Program-made: the position numbers and the translations under genes | Shown: positions 5,203 to 62,155 of the stretch, piece by piece | How the letters are laid out: every line of letters begins with the position of its first letter | How positions within the stretch are numbered: position 1 is the first letter of the stretch | Notes under the pieces: model-generated | What the model saw: the letters and a program-made list of their open reading frames with translations, nothing else | Database searches by the model: none | What the model was told of the DNA's origin: nothing | Assembly (NCBI RefSeq): GCF_965230735.1 | Contig: NZ_OZ246016.1 | Location: 765,194 to 829,193, forward strand | Length of the DNA: 64,000 nt | Direction of reading: 5' to 3' | Source of the DNA: Motiliproteus sp. | GTDB lineage: Bacteria > Pseudomonadota > Gammaproteobacteria > Pseudomonadales > Balneatricaceae

Positions 5203-7035
5203 ATGGCCATGCCTTTATCGATACTGCACCAACGCCTTTCGAACTGGATCCTGGTGGCGATTGCTCTACTGCTGGCCGCCCTCTCCCTGCTATGGCTGAT
5301 TATCACCACCGCCTCTGAACGCCAGGATCAGGCTGCCGCCGAGCAATACCGGCAGCAGGTCGACTCGGCCTTGAACTACGAGATCAAGGGCTTAGGCACC
5401 CATGCGATGGATGCCGCCTGGTGGGATGAAGCGATCCGGAACCTGGTGCAACAGCCTGACCCGGACTGGGGCCAGAGTAATATCGGCGCCTATCTGGATG
5501 AGGAGTTCGGGATTCCGATCTCGATGGCGATCGATCAGCACGACCGCCTGCTGCAGGGGTTTGTCGATTCGGAACCGATGCAGCATTTTGAGCCCTTTGC
5601 CGACAGCCGTTCACTGGCGATATTGATTCAGCAGGCACGGGCTAGTTCACTTCAGGACCCGGAAGGGTTCGGCGGTTTGATCGAAGTGGCCGGACAGCTC
5701 TACGTTGCCGGGGTGGCCCCTTTTACCACCGAAGAGGTCGCCGACGATGATGTCCGCAGTGGCGAACTGTTCAGTGTGCTGGTGTTTTTAAAGCGCTTTG
5801 ACGCCGACTATGTCGACGGCTTCTCTGAGCGCTTTTCGCTGCAACTGACCGGTATCAGACCTTATGCCGGTAACAACAGTCTGCCGATGACCACCTTAAC
5901 GGGTAATAATCTCGGCCACCTGCATTTCTCCCCGCCGACACCGGGCCTGCACCTGATCGATTCGATCCTGCAGCCGGTATTGCTGTTCAGTGCGGTGCTG
6001 GGGGCGATGTTCCTGCTCAATGCCTACTTCAGTTTCCGTACCGCCCGACTCAGCCAATTGTTGGAAATAGAACACAAACAGTTACGGCAGACCCGTTTCG
6101 AACTGAAGATCAATCAGGAGATTATCGGTTCGATCAAGGAAGGGGTGGTCGTGGTCGATGAGCAGTATCTGATCACCTATACCAATCCCGCCTTCAGCCG
6201 AATCACCGGTTTCTCTGACGCAGAAGTGATCGGTAAACGTGCGCTGATGGACCCGAGGATCGACGTCAGTAAATCGCTATATCAGCAGATGCAGCAGGCG
6301 ATTGACGAGCAGGGTAACTGGGAACATGAGATTAACGCGCAGCGCAAAGATGGGACGAACTATACCCTGAGCATGTCGGTCAGCCCGTTGATCGATCAGG
6401 GGCAGTGCAGCAGCGAGCTGGTGGGAATCTTCACCGATGTGACCGAGCGCAAGCAGCAGGAGCGACTGCTGGAGAAGCTGGCCAATCAGGATACCCTGAC
6501 CGAACTGTTGAATCGGCGTAGTTTCAAGCAGCGGGTGGAGCAGAAGATTGAGCGGGCGGGGCGTCACCCCGATACCCGATTGGCGTTGCTGTTTATCGAC
6601 CTGGACCTGTTTAAGGAGGTCAACGATTCCTACGGGCACGAGATTGGCGATCAACTGCTGATCGAGATTGCCGTGAGAATCCGGCGCTGCCTGCGCGCCT
6701 ATGACACGGTTGGCCGCATCGGCCTTGAGGAAGCGACAGCGCAAGTGAGCGGCGCCCTGGTCGGGCGGGTCGGCGGTGATGAATTTACCATCGCGATTGA
6801 CGAGCTTGCCGGCCAGCAAGATCTGGAGCGGGTGATCCAGCGCCTGCTCGAGCAGATTGAACAGCCCTTAACCCTTGCGGGCCAACAGGTGGCGGTGACC
6901 GCCAGCATCGGGGTGGCTATCTACCCGGAAGACGGAGGCAGTTATGCCGACCTGATCCGCCATGCCGATAAAGCGATGTATCGTTCCAAGCAGGGCGGGC
7001 GCAACCGCTCCTGCTATTACTCCGACCCGGTCTGA
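5203..7035 (+). CDS. Membrane diguanylate cyclase (CHASE4-PAS-GGDEF)
   Basis: Two TM segments flank a CHASE4-like region (DAAWWDEA). PAS (ITYTNPAFSRITGFSDAEVIG), DTLTELLNRR, FIDLDLFKEVNDSYGHEIGD, GGDEF, ADKAMYRSK; no EAL domain. Confidence 0.9.
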   Translation: MAMPLSILHQRLSNWILVAIALLLAALSLLWLIITTASERQDQAAAEQYRQQVDSALNYEIKGLGTHAMDAAWWDEAIRNLVQQPDPDWGQSNIGAYLDEEFGIPISMAIDQHDRLLQGFVDSEPMQHFEPFADSRSLAILIQQARASSLQDPEGFGGLIEVAGQLYVAGVAPFTTEEVADDDVRSGELFSVLVFLKRFDADYVDGFSERFSLQLTGIRPYAGNNSLPMTTLTGNNLGHLHFSPPTPGLHLIDSILQPVLLFSAVLGAMFLLNAYFSFRTARLSQLLEIEHKQLRQTRFELKINQEIIGSIKEGVVVVDEQYLITYTNPAFSRITGFSDAEVIGKRALMDPRIDVSKSLYQQMQQAIDEQGNWEHEINAQRKDGTNYTLSMSVSPLIDQGQCSSELVGIFTDVTERKQQERLLEKLANQDTLTELLNRRSFKQRVEQKIERAGRHPDTRLALLFIDLDLFKEVNDSYGHEIGDQLLIEIAVRIRRCLRAYDTVGRIGLEEATAQVSGALVGRVGGDEFTIAIDELAGQQDLERVIQRLLEQIEQPLTLAGQQVAVTASIGVAIYPEDGGSYADLIRHADKAMYRSKQGGRNRSCYYSDPV

Positions 7036-56512: not shown

Positions 56513-57592
56513 GTGAACAGATCCGCTTGCCATTGGTGGCATCGGTACCGATTTGGGCTGGTAACGATAATCCTGACCGTCATGATGACATCGACGGCGC
56601 AGGCCTGGACGGTGCAATCCCGCCAGCCCCTGTTCCAGTTTGAGCAGTGGCAGCAAGCCCAGATCGAGCCGATCACCACCGCCAGCCGACCCTGGCGCCT
56701 GTGCGCGCTGTATCCCCATATCAAAGACTCCTACTGGCTTAGCGTCAATTACGGCATGGTCGATCAGGCCGAGCGGCTCGGAGTGCAGCTCAAAGCGGCC
56801 GAAGCCGGCGGCTACCACCACCTGGAGCGGCAGTGGCAGCAACTGCAGGCCTGCCTGGACTGGCCCGCCGATGCGATTCTGCTGGGAACGGTGGCGTATC
56901 AAGAACTCAACAGTCGGTTGCAGCAGCTCGATAGCGAGGTGCCGCTGTTCGGGGTGGTGAATGATCTGTCCCGCGATGGTCTGACCGGTCGGGTGGGGGT
57001 GTCCTGGTACCAGATGGGCTTCAAGGTCGGCCGTTTTCTGGCCGAGCGCCACCCGGCCGGGAGCGTACCGGCCAAAGTCGCCTGGTTCCCCGGCCCGAAA
57101 CGGTTGGAAGCCAAATCGGAAGTGGGCAGCGGCATCCGTGATGGGCTGGCCGACAGCGCGGTGACCGAGGTGATCACCGCCGGTTACGGCGACAACGATC
57201 GTGACGTGCAGCGGGCGTTGTTGCAGCAACTGCTTGATCAGCATCAGGATCTGGACTACATCGTCGGCGGCGCGGTGCTGGTCGAGATCGCCATCAATGA
57301 ACTCAAACACCGTCAACTCGACAAACCGCCGCAACTGATCAGCCACTACTATTCCCACGGTATGTACCGGGCGCTGCTGCGGGGCAAAGTGTTGATGGCC
57401 AACACCGATCAGATGGTGCTGCACGGCCGCTTGGCGATCGATCAGGCAGTACGCTATCTGGAAGGGCAGCCGCTAGAGCACGATATCGGCCCGGAGATTA
57501 TCAGCCTGACCCGGGACCGGCTCAGTCCGCAGATCAAGCAGGACTCGCTGTCACCGGCCAGCTTTATGCCGACCTATCGGGTAGAGCCTTAG
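56513..57592 (+). CDS. torT: TMAO reductase system periplasmic protein
   Basis: LCALYPHIKDSYWLSVNYG, EAGGY, VSWYQMG, AWFPGP, YGDND, AIDQAVR, LSPASF. Confidence 0.92.
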   Translation: MNRSACHWWHRYRFGLVTIILTVMMTSTAQAWTVQSRQPLFQFEQWQQAQIEPITTASRPWRLCALYPHIKDSYWLSVNYGMVDQAERLGVQLKAAEAGGYHHLERQWQQLQACLDWPADAILLGTVAYQELNSRLQQLDSEVPLFGVVNDLSRDGLTGRVGVSWYQMGFKVGRFLAERHPAGSVPAKVAWFPGPKRLEAKSEVGSGIRDGLADSAVTEVITAGYGDNDRDVQRALLQQLLDQHQDLDYIVGGAVLVEIAINELKHRQLDKPPQLISHYYSHGMYRALLRGKVLMANTDQMVLHGRLAIDQAVRYLEGQPLEHDIGPEIISLTRDRLSPQIKQDSLSPASFMPTYRVEP

Positions 57593-57786
57593 GCGTTGTA
57601 AAAAGCGGTAACCCAAATAGGTTTTGCCGGGGAATAAAGCAGACTATCGGTACAAACGCTAAGCTATAGTATCGAGACGATAAGTACCCAGCGTGCCGGT
57701 AACAGTATCGGTCCACCCTTCTAAGATCAGGGAGATCACAACGATCAGCAGGGACAGCTTCTTCCAATCATTTTCAATCTTTGGTG

Positions 57787-57928
57787 GCCTAACCATTTGC
57801 CCGTTGGGCGAACTGGGCCTGATAGATGTTGCTGAATCGATGGATGATTTTTCCTTGCTACCTTGGAAGGTAGACCAAGCTTGCAAGGAAGGTCTTCTTT
57901 ACAAGGGCCAAGTATTGAAGTGTTAAGC
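57787..57928 (+). repeat. Leftmost recombination site (degenerate long attC or attI-like)
   Basis: R' GTTAAGC at 57922; candidate R'' GCCTAAC at 57787; inner inverted repeats TTCCTTGC..GCAAGGAA and TACCTT..AAGGTA; L-box spacing non-canonical. Confidence 0.45.
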
Positions 57929-57960
57929 AAATACTCAAATTGACTTTGAGGAGGTAGCTA

Positions 57961-58398
57961 TTGGAATCCCTTAAAATTCTAAAGACAGAAATTGATAGTC
58001 ACATTGAGAGCTTCTCTTCGAAAGCTAACAGGGATAAAGGGAAAACCTTTAGATTTAAATTAGCCACACTAACCCTAACGTTAATTGCTACTCTCGCATT
58101 AGGTATCGAATTTGGGGAAGAGAATAAGGTGCTTATGAAGAATGCAGCTTTTGTATGTAGCGCATTTGTTACTTTTCTGACAGGGCTTGATCTTTATTAC
58201 AATCACAAAGGGCTTTGGGTCCAGTATGTTAAGACTAGAAACCAGTTATACGCACTAAAGTATGAGATAAAAATTTCGGAAGCTCATGAAAAAGATCTGA
58301 ACGAAGATCTCGTGAAAGAGTTCAGCCAGAAGCTTGAGAGAATATTGGAAGAATGCAACAAATGGTGGCTTAAAGAGAGATCGCGAGAAGATGCTTAA
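57961..58398 (+). CDS. Cassette 1: SLATT/DUF4231-like 2TM protein
   Basis: TTG start with GAGGAGG RBS; helix, two TM segments, then NHKGLWVQYVKTRNQLYALK and a helical tail. Confidence 0.75.
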   Translation: MESLKILKTEIDSHIESFSSKANRDKGKTFRFKLATLTLTLIATLALGIEFGEENKVLMKNAAFVCSAFVTFLTGLDLYYNHKGLWVQYVKTRNQLYALKYEIKISEAHEKDLNEDLVKEFSQKLERILEECNKWWLKERSREDA

Positions 58399-58467
58399 CA
58401 AGGCCAAGCAGTGCGTGCCCTTCGGGCACCGGACTCGCTTCGCTCGCCGCTGTTAGCGGCGTTATGC
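58393..58467 (+). repeat. attC site 1 (75 bp)
   Basis: GCTTAAC-AAGGC-CAAGCAG...CTGTT-AGCGGC-GTTATGC; extrahelical G in L''; inner hairpins GCCCTTCGGGC and CGCTTCGCTCG. Confidence 0.9.
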
Positions 58468-58482
58468 GACAAAAGGAACCGC

Positions 58483-59289
58483 ATGAGATTTATTAAAGCA
58501 AATCTACCATTTTTGCTAGCTTGTATTGCTACGCTTACAGCTTTTATATGGTTAGTAGCATCCCCTGATTTCGAACCAATAGTTACAACAGTAGTGGGCT
58601 TAATTACATGCATTAGCTTAAGACCTAAAGATTGGATGATCATCAGAAAAAGGAATCAATCAGAACTACCAGATTTCGAGTTCAATCGAATTAGCGTAAC
58701 AAAAAATACAAGAAGAGATAATATATACACAGAAGAAAATGGCTTGAAGCGTTTTAATTTTGATCATGCTTTAAGCGATAGAGATAAGTCCATAGAGTTC
58801 TCTGCTAAACCCGGAAAATACAAGTATAGCGAATGGAGCAAGGTGCCTATTCGTGTAGTTATTCTGTCGCAATCAAATACGTGGGGAGAAAACAAACACT
58901 ATGTATATGCGATAGTCCCAGATAAGAGTCCGGTTTGTTTTTATCAGTTCGAAGCTGTGTGCTGCGAAATATGCGCAGATGATGTTGATGGTGATGGGAA
59001 TTTAGAGGTTGTAATAGGCTACAAGTGCGGTGCTCATACTGAGGGATTAAGGGTTTTTCGTTTGGATGATCATTTTGACCTGATTTCAGTCCCTGGCTCT
59101 GACATAGGCAGTGACTTCCCATTAATTACTTGGGGGAGAGCGGATGGCGTTGACTATTCCGTTAACTCTTACAGCAGAAACTGGGGTGAGAATAGAGAGG
59201 AGTGGCATACACAAATTGAAGTATACAGGTATAGAGATGGAAAGTTTGATCTCTACAAGTCTGAGAAAGTGCAGTGGCAACCCGCATAA
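58483..59289 (+). CDS. Cassette 2: hypothetical protein with N-terminal 2TM and an FG-GAP-like DVDGDGNLE motif
   Basis: ATG 58483 after AAAGGA; hydrophobic N-terminus; DDVDGDGNLEVVIGY; stop lies in the attC2 R'' box. Confidence 0.75.
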   Translation: MRFIKANLPFLLACIATLTAFIWLVASPDFEPIVTTVVGLITCISLRPKDWMIIRKRNQSELPDFEFNRISVTKNTRRDNIYTEENGLKRFNFDHALSDRDKSIEFSAKPGKYKYSEWSKVPIRVVILSQSNTWGENKHYVYAIVPDKSPVCFYQFEAVCCEICADDVDGDGNLEVVIGYKCGAHTEGLRVFRLDDHFDLISVPGSDIGSDFPLITWGRADGVDYSVNSYSRNWGENREEWHTQIEVYRYRDGKFDLYKSEKVQWQPA

Positions 59290-59358
59290 CAAATCAAAGC
59301 AGCACTGCTACTTCTTGGCTGGACGCGCTAACGCGCGCCGCTGTTTGAGGTGTTAAGT
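59284..59358 (+). repeat. attC site 2 (75 bp)
   Basis: GCATAAC-AAATC-AAAGCAGC...GCTGTTT-GAGGT-GTTAAGT; extrahelical G; inner CGCGCTAACGCGCG hairpin. Confidence 0.9.
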
Positions 59359-59372
59359 GAAAAGGAAGCTCT

Positions 59373-60338
59373 GTGAAAATATGGTATTTCGAAACATCTG
59401 CTGTTAATTATCTTATGGATATCATGTCTGCACATGATGCTGTTGAAACAAAGAAAATACAGCTTCTGAAAGGAAGAGATTGGTGCATATCGCCAGTAAC
59501 TCTGCTTGAAATACTGCAAACATCAGACCCAGAAAGACGAAGGGAGATTGTTGAGTTCGCACAATGCTTATTTAGTAGTGAGCTTCTAGCCTCTCCAGAA
59601 GAAACAATTATTCACTATATAAATCAGGGCTTTCCATCTGAAGAGAAAAGGGTAAGACTTTCCTCGCAAAGCCTATTAGCTGATGTTTGGCGTGATACAT
59701 CCACAAATTATAAAGAAATAAATGTAGATGTTGAACAACTGAAAAACAGGAATAAAATTTTAAAGTCTTTCACGAAGATGATTCATCAGGTTATTAATGG
59801 AAAAGATAATATAATTATTCCAACATCAGAGAATGAGTCGTTTAATTATTCTTTAGAGGCGTGGTTAAATAGCTTAGAGTTCATTAAAAACGACTCTCCA
59901 TATACGCAAGAGCTAAGAACCATATTTAAATTATCGATTGTCTATCTAATTTTATTAATATGCTGTCATGTCGGCCCAGGCCAAGAGATAACTAATAGGT
60001 TATGGGAAAAAATAGGTATTGATAAAACAAAATGCAGAATTAATTATGCGCTCAGCAACTGGGAGCCATTAATATATAAAGGCCCTCTATCTACCTTAGC
60101 AAAAATGGCTTATAGCCAATCATTGGTCAGATTTTCAAGGGGTGTTTATAACGATAGCCTACATGCAATGTACCTTAATTACACGGATCTCATTTTTTCT
60201 GATGATGGCCACTTCAAAGATCTTCAAAACGCCCTTGCTGGAACTCCCTACTTCAGTAGAGTTCAGATCATGTCTGAAATTCCATTTAAAAAGGAGTCTC
60301 ATAGAGGTGAATTTAAATCTAACATGGTAATCACTTAA
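59373..60338 (+). CDS. Cassette 3: PIN-like domain protein (putative RNase)
   Basis: YFETSAVNYL, CISPVTLLEIL, and C-terminal YNDSLHAMY..LIFSDDGHF match the PIN acidic tetrad, split by a long insert. Confidence 0.65.
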   Translation: MKIWYFETSAVNYLMDIMSAHDAVETKKIQLLKGRDWCISPVTLLEILQTSDPERRREIVEFAQCLFSSELLASPEETIIHYINQGFPSEEKRVRLSSQSLLADVWRDTSTNYKEINVDVEQLKNRNKILKSFTKMIHQVINGKDNIIIPTSENESFNYSLEAWLNSLEFIKNDSPYTQELRTIFKLSIVYLILLICCHVGPGQEITNRLWEKIGIDKTKCRINYALSNWEPLIYKGPLSTLAKMAYSQSLVRFSRGVYNDSLHAMYLNYTDLIFSDDGHFKDLQNALAGTPYFSRVQIMSEIPFKKESHRGEFKSNMVIT

Positions 60339-60396
60339 CTACACGCCTTTCAGGCACCTGACGCAGCAAAGCTGGCCGGTTATTAAGGCGTTATAT
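60333..60396 (+). repeat. attC site 3 (64 bp, partly degenerate)
   Basis: ACTTAAC...GCACC..GCAGC-AAA-GCTG..CCGGTTATTAAGGC-GTTATAT; L''/L' pairing imperfect. Confidence 0.7.
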
Positions 60397-60549
60397 CAGA
60401 AACTAAAAGCCCACTTGTGGGTTAAATCCACTCCACCGACAAACAGCCAGTCCTTGCTATACAAGGCCTTCAACTATACTCCCTGCTGTTCTAAGCAACT
60501 CGGTCCAGACCGTTAATGTGGGGCGGTGGATTTGAAATAGGGGCAGTGG

Positions 60550-61266
60550 ATGATACAGAGAAACCACCCGAAGCGTTCTATCATCGCCCTGGTGTTGCTG
60601 CTACTAGCCCCCATCTATTTGGCACTGCCCGTCTCCGCCGCTCAGTATCGTTGCGATAACATCCCGGAAGTTTCCCTCTCTGCGCCCAACGACAACATGC
60701 TCGACTATGTTTGCACGGCCGCGGCCAGGACGTTCGAATTTCTAGGCCGCTATCAGATGGGACCTCAAAGGCCGATCCAGGTTGAGATCATTGAGCATCA
60801 GATTAACTCGGGCGGCTACAAGGCCTTTGGCAGTTATGACCGCCAAAGCGAGCGCGTCCGAATTATGTCGCTACCTGCCGTATTGAACAGCAGCCAATCA
60901 CCGCAGATGTACAAGATGCCGTTTGATCAGGAGCATTATATCGGTGCCCTTGCTCATGAGCTGGCCCATGCGGTGTTTCACCAGAATGCCGTCGACGTCG
61001 AGGAGAAGTGGAACAATACCGCCCACGAATATATCGCCCATGCCACCCAGCTCGGTGTGTTAGCGGCGCCGAAGCGTGAGCAGATTATTTTGTCTGAAGA
61101 GACGGGCCCTTGGGAGTCAGGGGATGAGATCAGCGTGACTTACATGGCCTTCAATCCCACCGGCTTCGCGGTGAAGTCCTATCTGCATCTGACTCAATTG
61201 AGCAATCCGCAGCCGTTTATCAAGCTGCTGTTGAATCACAAATGGCTGTATATCTCGGTGCCCTGA
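60550..61266 (+). CDS. Exported hypothetical protein with HExxH motif
   Basis: Signal peptide; ALAHELAHAVFH followed by HEYIAH; not followed by an attC. Confidence 0.7.
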   Translation: MIQRNHPKRSIIALVLLLLAPIYLALPVSAAQYRCDNIPEVSLSAPNDNMLDYVCTAAARTFEFLGRYQMGPQRPIQVEIIEHQINSGGYKAFGSYDRQSERVRIMSLPAVLNSSQSPQMYKMPFDQEHYIGALAHELAHAVFHQNAVDVEEKWNNTAHEYIAHATQLGVLAAPKREQIILSEETGPWESGDEISVTYMAFNPTGFAVKSYLHLTQLSNPQPFIKLLLNHKWLYISVP

Positions 61267-61308: not shown

Positions 61309-62052
61309 TCAGTTCACCTCGGCGGCAAACAGGTAGCCTTCGCCGTGGACGGTGATCAGTACTTCCGGGGCTTTCGGATCGGTTTCGATCTTGTTGCGCA
61401 GGCGCCGAACCAGTACATCGATGGTGCGATCGCTGGGGCTGTCGACCCGATGACTGATCAGGTTCAACAGTCGCTCACGACTCAGGACTCGGTTGGGGTA
61501 GGCGACAAAGGCCACCAGAATTTCGTACTCGGCCTTGGTCAGTTTGACCGGTTGATCGCCACGGCACAGCTTGCGGCGCGGGATATCGAAGCGCCAGTCG
61601 CCAAAGCGCAGGATGTCGCTGTCCTCTTCAACCTCCGGCTGTTGGGCCTCTGATTGGCGCGCCAGTGAGATCCGCCACAGCAGGTTCTTTACCCGCACCA
61701 GCAGCTCGCGCAGCTCCACCGGCTTGGTGACATAGTCGTCGGCGCCCATCTCCAATCCCACGATCCGGTCCACCGTATCGGTGCGGCCGGTGACCAGAAT
61801 AATGCCGATGTTGGACTGGCTGCGGAGCTCGCGGGTCAGTGCCAGGCCGTCTTCCCCCGGCAGGTTGATATCCAGCAGCACCAGATCGATCTCGGCCTTG
61901 GCCAGCTCCTCGCGCATCTCGACCCCGCTGCCGGCCTGGCTGACCCGGTAACCGGCGTTTTCGAAATAGCCGCTCAACTTGAGCCGGGTGATCGGATCAT
62001 CTTCGACCACCAGGACGTGGTAGGTCGGTGCCGGTTGGTAGCTTGTGCTCAT
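61309..62052 (-). CDS. torR: TMAO response regulator
   Basis: OmpR family; VVEDDPITR, DINLPGEDG, VTGRTDTVDRIVGLEMGADDYVTKP, TVHGEGY; divergent from torECA. Confidence 0.92.
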   Translation of the reverse strand: MSTSYQPAPTYHVLVVEDDPITRLKLSGYFENAGYRVSQAGSGVEMREELAKAEIDLVLLDINLPGEDGLALTRELRSQSNIGIILVTGRTDTVDRIVGLEMGADDYVTKPVELRELLVRVKNLLWRISLARQSEAQQPEVEEDSDILRFGDWRFDIPRRKLCRGDQPVKLTKAEYEILVAFVAYPNRVLSRERLLNLISHRVDSPSDRTIDVLVRRLRNKIETDPKAPEVLITVHGEGYLFAAEVN

Positions 62053-62155
62053 GTTGGTTTCACTCTGTGCGGCGGGTGACGGCAGCGGGATTTGCTCGAC
62101 CACTGTCGGCAAGGATACCCGGTTTTGCCGGGATGGCATCGTCCCAGGTCAATTT

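Follow-up and report, generated by a model that had tools for sequence, protein, structure and literature searches.

The cassette array between torT and torR

The window analysed here, a 64-kb stretch of DNA (C1:765194–829193) from the single-contig, 3.96-Mb genome of Motiliproteus sp., carried between the genes torT and torR a run of three integron gene cassettes, joined at its left end to a unit of about 210 bp that includes a small gene (gene X) and is referred to below as the platform. The GC content in the torT–torR block fell from ∼0.62 to 0.36–0.47; scripted composition gave 0.41, 0.41 and 0.36 for cassettes 1, 2 and 3, against 0.62 for torT and torR. Platform and cassettes, each cassette consisting of one open reading frame (ORF) and an attC site, were laid out as follows, with the stroke in G/TT marking the crossover:

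57713–57922, plus strand: whole copy of the platform, an attI-like docking site ending at the G of G/TT (57922), with 77–78% identity to the two other copies in the genome
57714–57878, minus strand: 5' part of gene X, a pseudogene with lost start codon and four in-frame stops (six-frame profile match to the gene X alignment, E 4.8e-21)
57861–57906, no strand: three palindromes of 10 bp, centred at 18-bp intervals, CCTTGGAAGG (57861–57870), GCTTGCAAGG (57879–57888) and the degenerate CTTTACAAGG (57897–57906)
57923–58461, plus strand: cassette 1, with ORF 57961–58398 for a SLATT_1 two-transmembrane protein of 145 aa (NCBIfam NF033634) and attC1
58462–59352, plus strand: cassette 2, with ORF 58483–59289 for a protein of 268 aa with an N-terminal membrane anchor, and attC2 (attC model)
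59353–60390, plus strand: cassette 3, with ORF 59373–60338 for a possibly split PIN-like protein of 321 aa, and a weak attC3 from 60317 or 60333 to 60396 (attC model)

The G/TT boundaries were located at 57922/57923, 58461/58462, 59352/59353 and 60390/60391. The R'' boxes of cassettes 1, 2 and 3 were GCTTAAC (58393–58399), GCATAAC (59284–59290) and ACTTAAC (60333–60339), and the R' boxes at the 5' ends of the same cassettes were GTTAAGC, GTTATGC and GTTAAGT. A script confirmed that R'' and the cassette's own 5' R' were exact reverse complements over 7 of 7 positions in all three cassettes, the match being unique within each cassette, and this is the signature left by recombination via circular cassette intermediates. 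The TAA stop codon of each ORF fell inside the R'' box of its own cassette.

These boundaries were compared with an attC covariance model (R1) built from 21 attC sites, all from outside the window, which had been collected from arrays at other loci and in other genomes by following the boundary logic, and which included the R-box and L-box pairs. At E ≤ 10, R1 returned exactly three matches in the window, all on the plus strand and 0.9–1.0 kb apart: attC1 at 58393–58467 (45.4 bits, E 1.6e-8), attC2 at 59284–59358 (41.8 bits, E 1.1e-7) and attC3 at 60317–60396 (24.2 bits, E 0.002). The model also picked up the 129-nt attC sites of the Vibrio cholerae repeat (VCR) type, which were outside its training set. 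A first crude attC finder missed the known sites, and Rfam, which has no attC family, gave chance matches only. A search with the TIGR02249 profile found no intI in the window, and the neighbour of the docking site was the gene X pseudogene rather than intI, as it would be in a complete integron.

Given the three R1 matches and the boundary logic, 57923–60390 is a genuine three-cassette integron array without an integrase in cis, that is, a set of clustered attC sites with no integron integrase (CALIN), in the sense of Cury et al. (2016; PMC4889954), with at least two same-strand attC sites within 4 kb according to a covariance model, here our own. As such, the array is ordinary and its kind is known. 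The original prediction, made from the letters of the window, had proposed three AT-rich cassettes with these limits, R'' boxes that contain the ORF stop and exactly complement their own R', the absence of intI from the surrounding 64 kb and the CALIN label, and all of this was borne out by reading, script, covariance model and profile search.

Its further claim of canonical L boxes with an extrahelical G in attC1 and attC2 held for the position and failed for the base. In both sites the L box comprised a 3-nt spacer, 5 bp, one bulged base at the canonical position and then 3–4 bp, and attC2 folded into a single hairpin with the bulged base. In the R1 alignments, however, the bulged base was a G on the top strand; it is therefore a C on the bottom strand, the one that recombines, where the canonical base is G. 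A bottom-strand extrahelical C was also present in 7 of 25 attC sites collected by chaining in related arrays. The attC of dfrA1, which has an extrahelical C on the bottom strand (A-N7-8-C), is excised well by SonIntIA and IntI2 (PMC3053210), and with this precedent the C is best regarded as a variant, neither a defect nor grounds for exclusion. In attC3 the R boxes were present and the L box was poor.

A conserved platform at the head of the array

Two other copies of the platform were found in the genome, at C1:3454033–3453822 and C1:1407931–1407726. All three ended in ...TG/TT, with sequences diverging beyond it, and were made up of gene X (read from the opposite strand), three palindromes of the form CCTTGSAAGG spaced at 18 bp and a core of the type CTAWTAAnnTG/TT. 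The palindromes were placed between the start of gene X and the crossover, the centre of the last one lying 20.5 bp before the crossover G. Among 16 aligned copies, which came from Motiliproteus, Oceaniserpentilla, Bermanella, Bacterioplanoides and one unclassified metagenome-assembled genome (MAG), the last ∼90 bp with the three palindromes were the most conserved part, and similarity was gone straight after GTTA. The same three-palindrome layout was found in Shewanella algae (L032), while Shewanella morhuae, Marinobacterium, Aestuariirhabdus and a metagenome contig had variants with one to three palindromes and a core of the type CTAATAAGCTG/TTAGC. Palindromes were also present in Gallaecimonas, where the crossover lay beyond the stretch read.

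The first-cassette halves of R' differed between copies (TTAAGC, TTAGCT, TTATGC, TTATAT, TTAGGG and TTATTT among them) and, wherever a chain of cassettes was found, equalled the R'' of their own cassette. These varying half-boxes imply that, in cassette insertion, the conserved platform takes the attI side. The 16 aligned copies, four further genomes (L035–L038) and S. algae all showed a conserved sequence, not itself part of a cassette, that stops at G/TT and is joined there to varying first cassettes, and by these comparisons the platform behaves as an orphan attI-like site. No description of it was found in the papers searched. The copy at 1.41 Mb headed a two-cassette array encoding SduA (Shedu) and an ankyrin protein, with the same boundary logic; beyond the copy at 3.45 Mb the DNA was of low GC content and no attC was detected. 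The torT-locus copy was the most decayed, with its gene X pseudogene, degenerate third palindrome and weak attC3, and may now be only weakly active.

Several other identities for this region were considered and rejected. A long attC at 57787–57929 ("attC0") was one of them, but R1 gave no match there and its R''-like GCCTAAC was unconserved in the other copies; the segment belongs instead to the decayed platform copy. A remnant of intI was ruled out, as the gene X frames had no similarity to IntI and both the true attI of this genome and a deleted-intI remnant look different. Likewise, the small minus-strand ORFs at 57659–57886 and 57745–57930 were not accepted as genes, their frames being broken or startless in other copies.

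Gene X

The window copy of gene X was interrupted by two TGA and two TAG codons, and the copy at 3.45 Mb was truncated. The paralogue at 1.41 Mb (C1:1407776–1408048) was intact, with a good Shine-Dalgarno sequence and a product of ∼105 aa beginning MYRRSKKYQAQ. The family comprised at least 81 homologues of ∼104 aa from marine Gammaproteobacteria, with a conserved C-terminal domain, and had no assignment in Pfam, PHROG, PADLOC or NCBIfam. An AlphaFold2 model (predicted local distance difference test score, pLDDT, 82) consisted of a helix, a four-stranded sheet and a second helix, and neither fold nor profile sequence comparison gave a significant match in the PDB. Nearly every close homologue examined headed an array; upstream of gene X and on the opposite strand, cassette arrays were found in S. 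algae, Gallaecimonas, Marinobacterium, Aestuariirhabdus and S. morhuae.

The protein of gene X is most likely a small regulator that binds DNA at the palindromes. Their position suggests that the protein may bind them and so regulate its own gene and perhaps the cassettes. A tyrosine recombinase adjoining gene X in S. morhuae was considered as a possible IntI and ruled out; it looks like an island integrase.

Two observations on the platforms of other genomes are recorded here. In MAG HF-Din24 (L026), two palindrome-bearing cores lay 4 kb apart on a single contig, ending at 5928 and 1839; each was followed by its own cassettes, and the second had no gene X. In S. morhuae (L037 2734–4083), a group II intron reverse transcriptase (RVT_1 and GIIM) was located in the attC of the first cassette behind the gene X platform. 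Targeting of attC sites is a habit of group IIC introns.

History of the locus and possible source of an integrase

The nearest relative with a named record, among the genomes searched, was Motiliproteus coralliicola C34. In two more distant congeners, torT and torR converged, as they do in E. coli, with ∼40 bp between them, in agreement with the original placing of the array between the two genes. M. coralliicola had the same insertion between torT and torR, namely the platform with its pseudogene, the right flank and a gene with domain DUF6639, and in it one different cassette followed by a canonical attC. At this locus its crossover read GCT instead of GTT, and the end of the first cassette was mismatched to R''. 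All three platforms occupied the same chromosomal places in M. coralliicola, each with different cassettes, which implies that the platforms predate the split of the two species and that cassette content has turned over since. The site had been supposed neutral in the original prediction; that does not hold, as the array hangs on a conserved, repeated platform already present in the ancestor shared with M. coralliicola.

A search of the whole genome for intI and other attC clusters revealed one intact IntI, 440 kb away (C1:1266358–1267305), and at least three further arrays, at 1.41 Mb, at 1.89 Mb and in the main integron. The IntI scored 427 bits, against a TIGR02249 cut-off of 265, and was the sole match above cut-off in the genome. 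The platform never adjoined intI in any genome where both positions were comparable, the two lying far apart.

Interpretation and alternatives

Taken together, these results make it probable that a conserved attI-like platform heads a genuine CALIN, the platform having been inserted in an ancestor and the cassettes exchanged through an integron integrase acting in trans. On this account an ancestor of both this species and M. coralliicola would have acquired the platform, the cassettes and the DUF6639 gene between torT and torR; the array is joined at the G/TT crossover to the platform, which would play the part of attI. Insertion and excision of cassettes would be the work of the genome's own IntI 440 kb away or, in relatives without intI, of a transient one, with the double-stranded platform core recombining with the folded bottom strand of attC. 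The gene X protein would bind the palindromes, and could be supplied to all three platforms from the intact copy at 1.41 Mb. An integrase in trans, possibly transient, seems the simplest explanation of the movement of cassettes.

A number of points weigh against this interpretation, beginning with the fact that the whole case for recombination is built on comparative sequence. The platform is unlike the true attI of the genome, which occurs next to intI and also at 1.893 Mb, where intI is deleted, and attI sites are reported as recognised by the cognate integrase only (PMC2095811). Among 20 genomes of the genus, the platform was present in 12 and intI in 8, with both in only 3, and M. coralliicola itself had no intI. 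attC3 reached only 24 bits, with R1 preferring as its R'' the ATCTAAC at 60317, 16 bases before the ACTTAAC that fits the boundary. Gene X was often a pseudogene, with stops within many of the matches, and a more distant homologue had phage- or plasmid-like surroundings, with neither palindromes nor cassettes beside it. Prediction of sigma-70 promoters gave none reading into the cassettes.

Among the alternatives, the idea that there is no integron array at all, merely chance attC-like matches in an AT-rich island acquired by some other route, is effectively refuted. Simple scans do produce many chance matches: a hairpin scan by folding energy over every TAAC...GTTA pair lacked specificity in this GC-rich genome, and a simple L-box score gave 37 matches against 47 in a reversed-genome control and was informative only at scores ≥8 in low-GC surroundings. 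R1, in contrast, made only three matches in 64 kb, with E down to 1e-8, the boundary logic held in three cases out of three, and a homologue of cassette 3 in V. cholerae (66% identity) is itself a cassette in a VCR array, flanked by two 129-nt attC sites found by R1. The array might instead have begun as an ordinary insertion into an attG site, at a GWT in the promoter region of the small regulator gene, the platform being conserved solely as the operator and promoter of that gene. Integron integrases insert cassettes with high frequency, at a large number of genomic 5'-GWT-3' sites, which may be how small CALINs arise (10.1101/2022.09.11.507474); the palindromes, moreover, stand where one would expect an autoregulatory operator, between the crossover and the start of gene X. 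Such an origin is nevertheless unlikely, as three paralogous copies, and copies in several genera, made independent use of the same G/TT while differing in their first cassettes, and random use would not keep choosing one triplet. Conservation, in addition, extended to the crossover-proximal core CTAWTAAnnTG/TT together with the palindromes, and the close homologues of gene X that were examined are nearly all at the head of arrays.

A stronger contender, although still on the doubtful side, is that the array is a fossil, captured long ago, with a dead platform at the torT locus and nothing mobile now. The loss of the start codon and the four stops of gene X in the window would fit this, as would the deviation of the third palindrome and of the TATTGAAGTG core from the consensus, the weakness of attC3 and the decay in M. 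coralliicola, whose crossover at this locus reads GCT and whose first-cassette end has lost its match to R''. Against it stand the intact, high-scoring attC1 and attC2, the three perfect R''/R' pairs and the three intact cassette ORFs; excision by recombination between two attC sites needs no attI, and the difference in cassette content from the sister species means that at least one exchange took place after the split. It is very improbable that a distinct system of gene capture services these platforms, with the cis-encoded IntI replaced by gene X or by some recombinase that it recruits. Such a system would account for the presence of the platform in nine Motiliproteus genomes without detectable intI, yet with cassette content that differs between species, and for a platform that did not adjoin intI where both positions were comparable. 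The gene X product of ∼104 aa, however, has no catalytic signature, matches no known fold and is often lost to pseudogenisation, the partner sites are typical attC hairpins with G/TT crossovers, which are substrates of IntI, and the recombinase beside gene X in S. morhuae is not an IntI and looks like an island integrase.

The platform could also be thought of as a portable docking station independent of any linked integrase, made up of gene X, palindromes and core, with the gene X protein, bound to the phased palindromes, recruiting or gating IntI in trans or, in a bolder version, recruiting another recombinase. We consider this a long shot. If it were true, cassettes could be captured and exchanged at a number of scattered sites even in genomes that have no intI themselves, as a "distributed integron". 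Exchange of cassettes at an attI-like platform by an integrase in trans remains the preferred interpretation.

Cassette genes and flanking regions

The three cassette ORFs were intact and each was preceded by a ribosome-binding site. The product of cassette 1 matched NF033634 (SLATT_1) with 76.9 bits, for a cut-off of 41, and fell below the cut-off of Pfam PF18181 (22.2 against 26.3). The SLATT domain is linked to defence, and a defence role for cassette 1 is plausible. Cassettes 2 and 3 had no match in PADLOC or Pfam, so that the original description of the array as defence or toxin cassettes found support in cassette 1 and none, from these searches, in the other two. Homologues of cassette 2 were patchily distributed in Photobacterium, Shewanella and Pseudoalteromonas. 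The AlphaFold2 model of cassette 3 (pLDDT 89.5) had no significant fold match in the PDB; the best one, to VapC, was weak (E 0.79, probability 0.28, template modelling score 0.18–0.36).

Outside the platform and cassettes, the block and its chromosomal flanks comprised:

56513–57592, plus strand: torT, periplasmic binding protein, left chromosomal flank (Pfam Peripla_BP_4/1)
60391–60549, plus strand: right flank of the array, in which TTATATCAGAAACTAAA corresponds, by comparison with M. coralliicola by eye, to the old right half of the docking site
60550–61266, plus strand: DUF6639 ORF of 238 aa with a signal peptide and HExxH motif (Pfam PF20344, E 6e-13)
61309–62139, minus strand: torR, response regulator, right chromosomal flank (Pfam Response_reg and Trans_reg_C)

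The torT gene was 92% identical to that of the M. coralliicola locus and, to the right of the array, clear homology with that species restarted at about 60443 (by eye). The DUF6639 ORF was within the inserted block common to both species and was missing from the empty torT–torR junctions of the two congeners. Its signal peptide and HELAH (HExxH) motif suggest that the protein may be a secreted metallopeptidase. It was considered as a fourth cassette and rejected, there being no attC 3' of it. In the flank shared with M. coralliicola, just 5' of the DUF6639 gene (60450–60500), CCTTGCTATACAAGGCCTTCAACTATACTCCCTGCTG/TT resembled the palindrome and core of the platform and may be an older, degenerate docking site.

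Other arrays and isolated attC sites in the genome

The main integron (C1:1254000–1268000; L007 6750–12330, minus strand, with intI at L007 12305–13309) carried anti-phage systems as cassettes. One cassette encoded a Ppl protein of 916 aa (PADLOC E 4.5e-156) with a 244-aa partner, and the cassette after it a DRT9 reverse transcriptase (E 2e-214) behind ∼230 bp of non-coding DNA. The last attC of this integron was apparently interrupted beside an ORF of 322 aa (L007 5398–6366).

A fourth array, on the plus strand at C1:1892900–1895300, had R1 matches at 1893607 and 1894590. It was headed by a true attI near-identical to that of the main integron (…TATGAGGACGCCGTCCTCATAACCAGGCTG/TTAGC) together with an apparent remnant of a deleted intI, and is a CALIN of the classical integrase-loss kind. 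Isolated attC sites in low-GC surroundings were found at C1:2127882–2127962 (plus strand, 47.3 bits) and C1:2801675–2801731 (minus strand, 45.4 bits), and may be single-cassette insertions, or single attC sites lacking the integron integrase (SALINs). A sequence of ∼55 bp, ACTATGGTTTCCCGTCAAGATAGTTAGGCCATTTTTGCCTCCCATCTCTC, followed AGCTAACAAGTG at the right ends of two different arrays (C1:∼1895104–1895170 and L021 ∼1800–1850) and also occurred in M. coralliicola (L030); possibly it is the terminus of an attC-targeting element. Public sequencing runs offered neither RNA nor independent DNA for the organism, the runs that contained this stretch all coming from the source sample.

Significance and comparison with known systems

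The arrays of this genome hold recognised anti-phage genes, namely Ppl and DRT9 in the case of the main integron and Shedu in that of a sister platform, which fits the recent picture of integrons as banks of defence genes. CALINs are about as common as complete integrons, and their origin and mobility are unresolved (PMC4889954; 10.1101/2022.09.11.507474). For one class of CALINs the present case offers a concrete origin, in the form of a conserved attI-like site that has its own small gene, is reused across paralogous loci and several gammaproteobacterial genera and is unlinked to intI. If an integrase in trans does recombine the platform, integrons here would be distributed systems with several docking sites per genome, and cassette reservoirs would have to be counted and annotated differently.

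As in other CALINs (PMC4889954), the torT–torR array had at least two attC sites of one orientation, single ORFs without promoters and, within 4 kb, no intI, and it belongs with the roughly half of CALINs found in genomes that encode IntI elsewhere. CALINs were described, however, without a recognisable platform and with unclear origin, whereas here a conserved attI-like module, present in repeated copies and carrying a small gene of its own, stands at the head. The sedentary chromosomal integron platform (intI, attI and the cassette promoter Pc) resembles it in having a divergent gene beside a double-stranded docking site, insertion at G/TT and an inverted repeat ∼20 bp before the crossover; in the true attI of this genome, GAGGAC-ACC-GTCCTC stands at a similar distance (by eye). 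It differs in that the divergent gene here encodes a 104-aa protein instead of a tyrosine recombinase, at a site unrelated to the genome's own attI. The attI1 site of class 1 integrons, with the accessory repeats DR1 and DR2, likewise has several repeated motifs upstream of a simple crossover site, whereas the repeats found here are 10-bp palindromes with an 18-bp period and no core like GTTRRRY. Insertion into attG sites (Loot et al., 10.1101/2022.09.11.507474) also places cassettes at GWT outside a complete integron and yields small integrase-less arrays, but attG sites are short, numerous and unconserved, unlike the one long conserved site that is reused across paralogues and genera. With the attC of dfrA1 (Larouche and Roy, 2011; PMC3053210), attC1 and attC2 share a C in place of G as the extrahelical base of the bottom strand; the dfrA1 site has A-N7-8-C spacing and lies in mobile class 1 and 2 integrons, whereas the bulge here is at the usual place, 5 bp into the L box. 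The array between torT and torR is thus of a known kind, and the conserved orphan docking platform at its head is a variant that was not found described in the papers searched.

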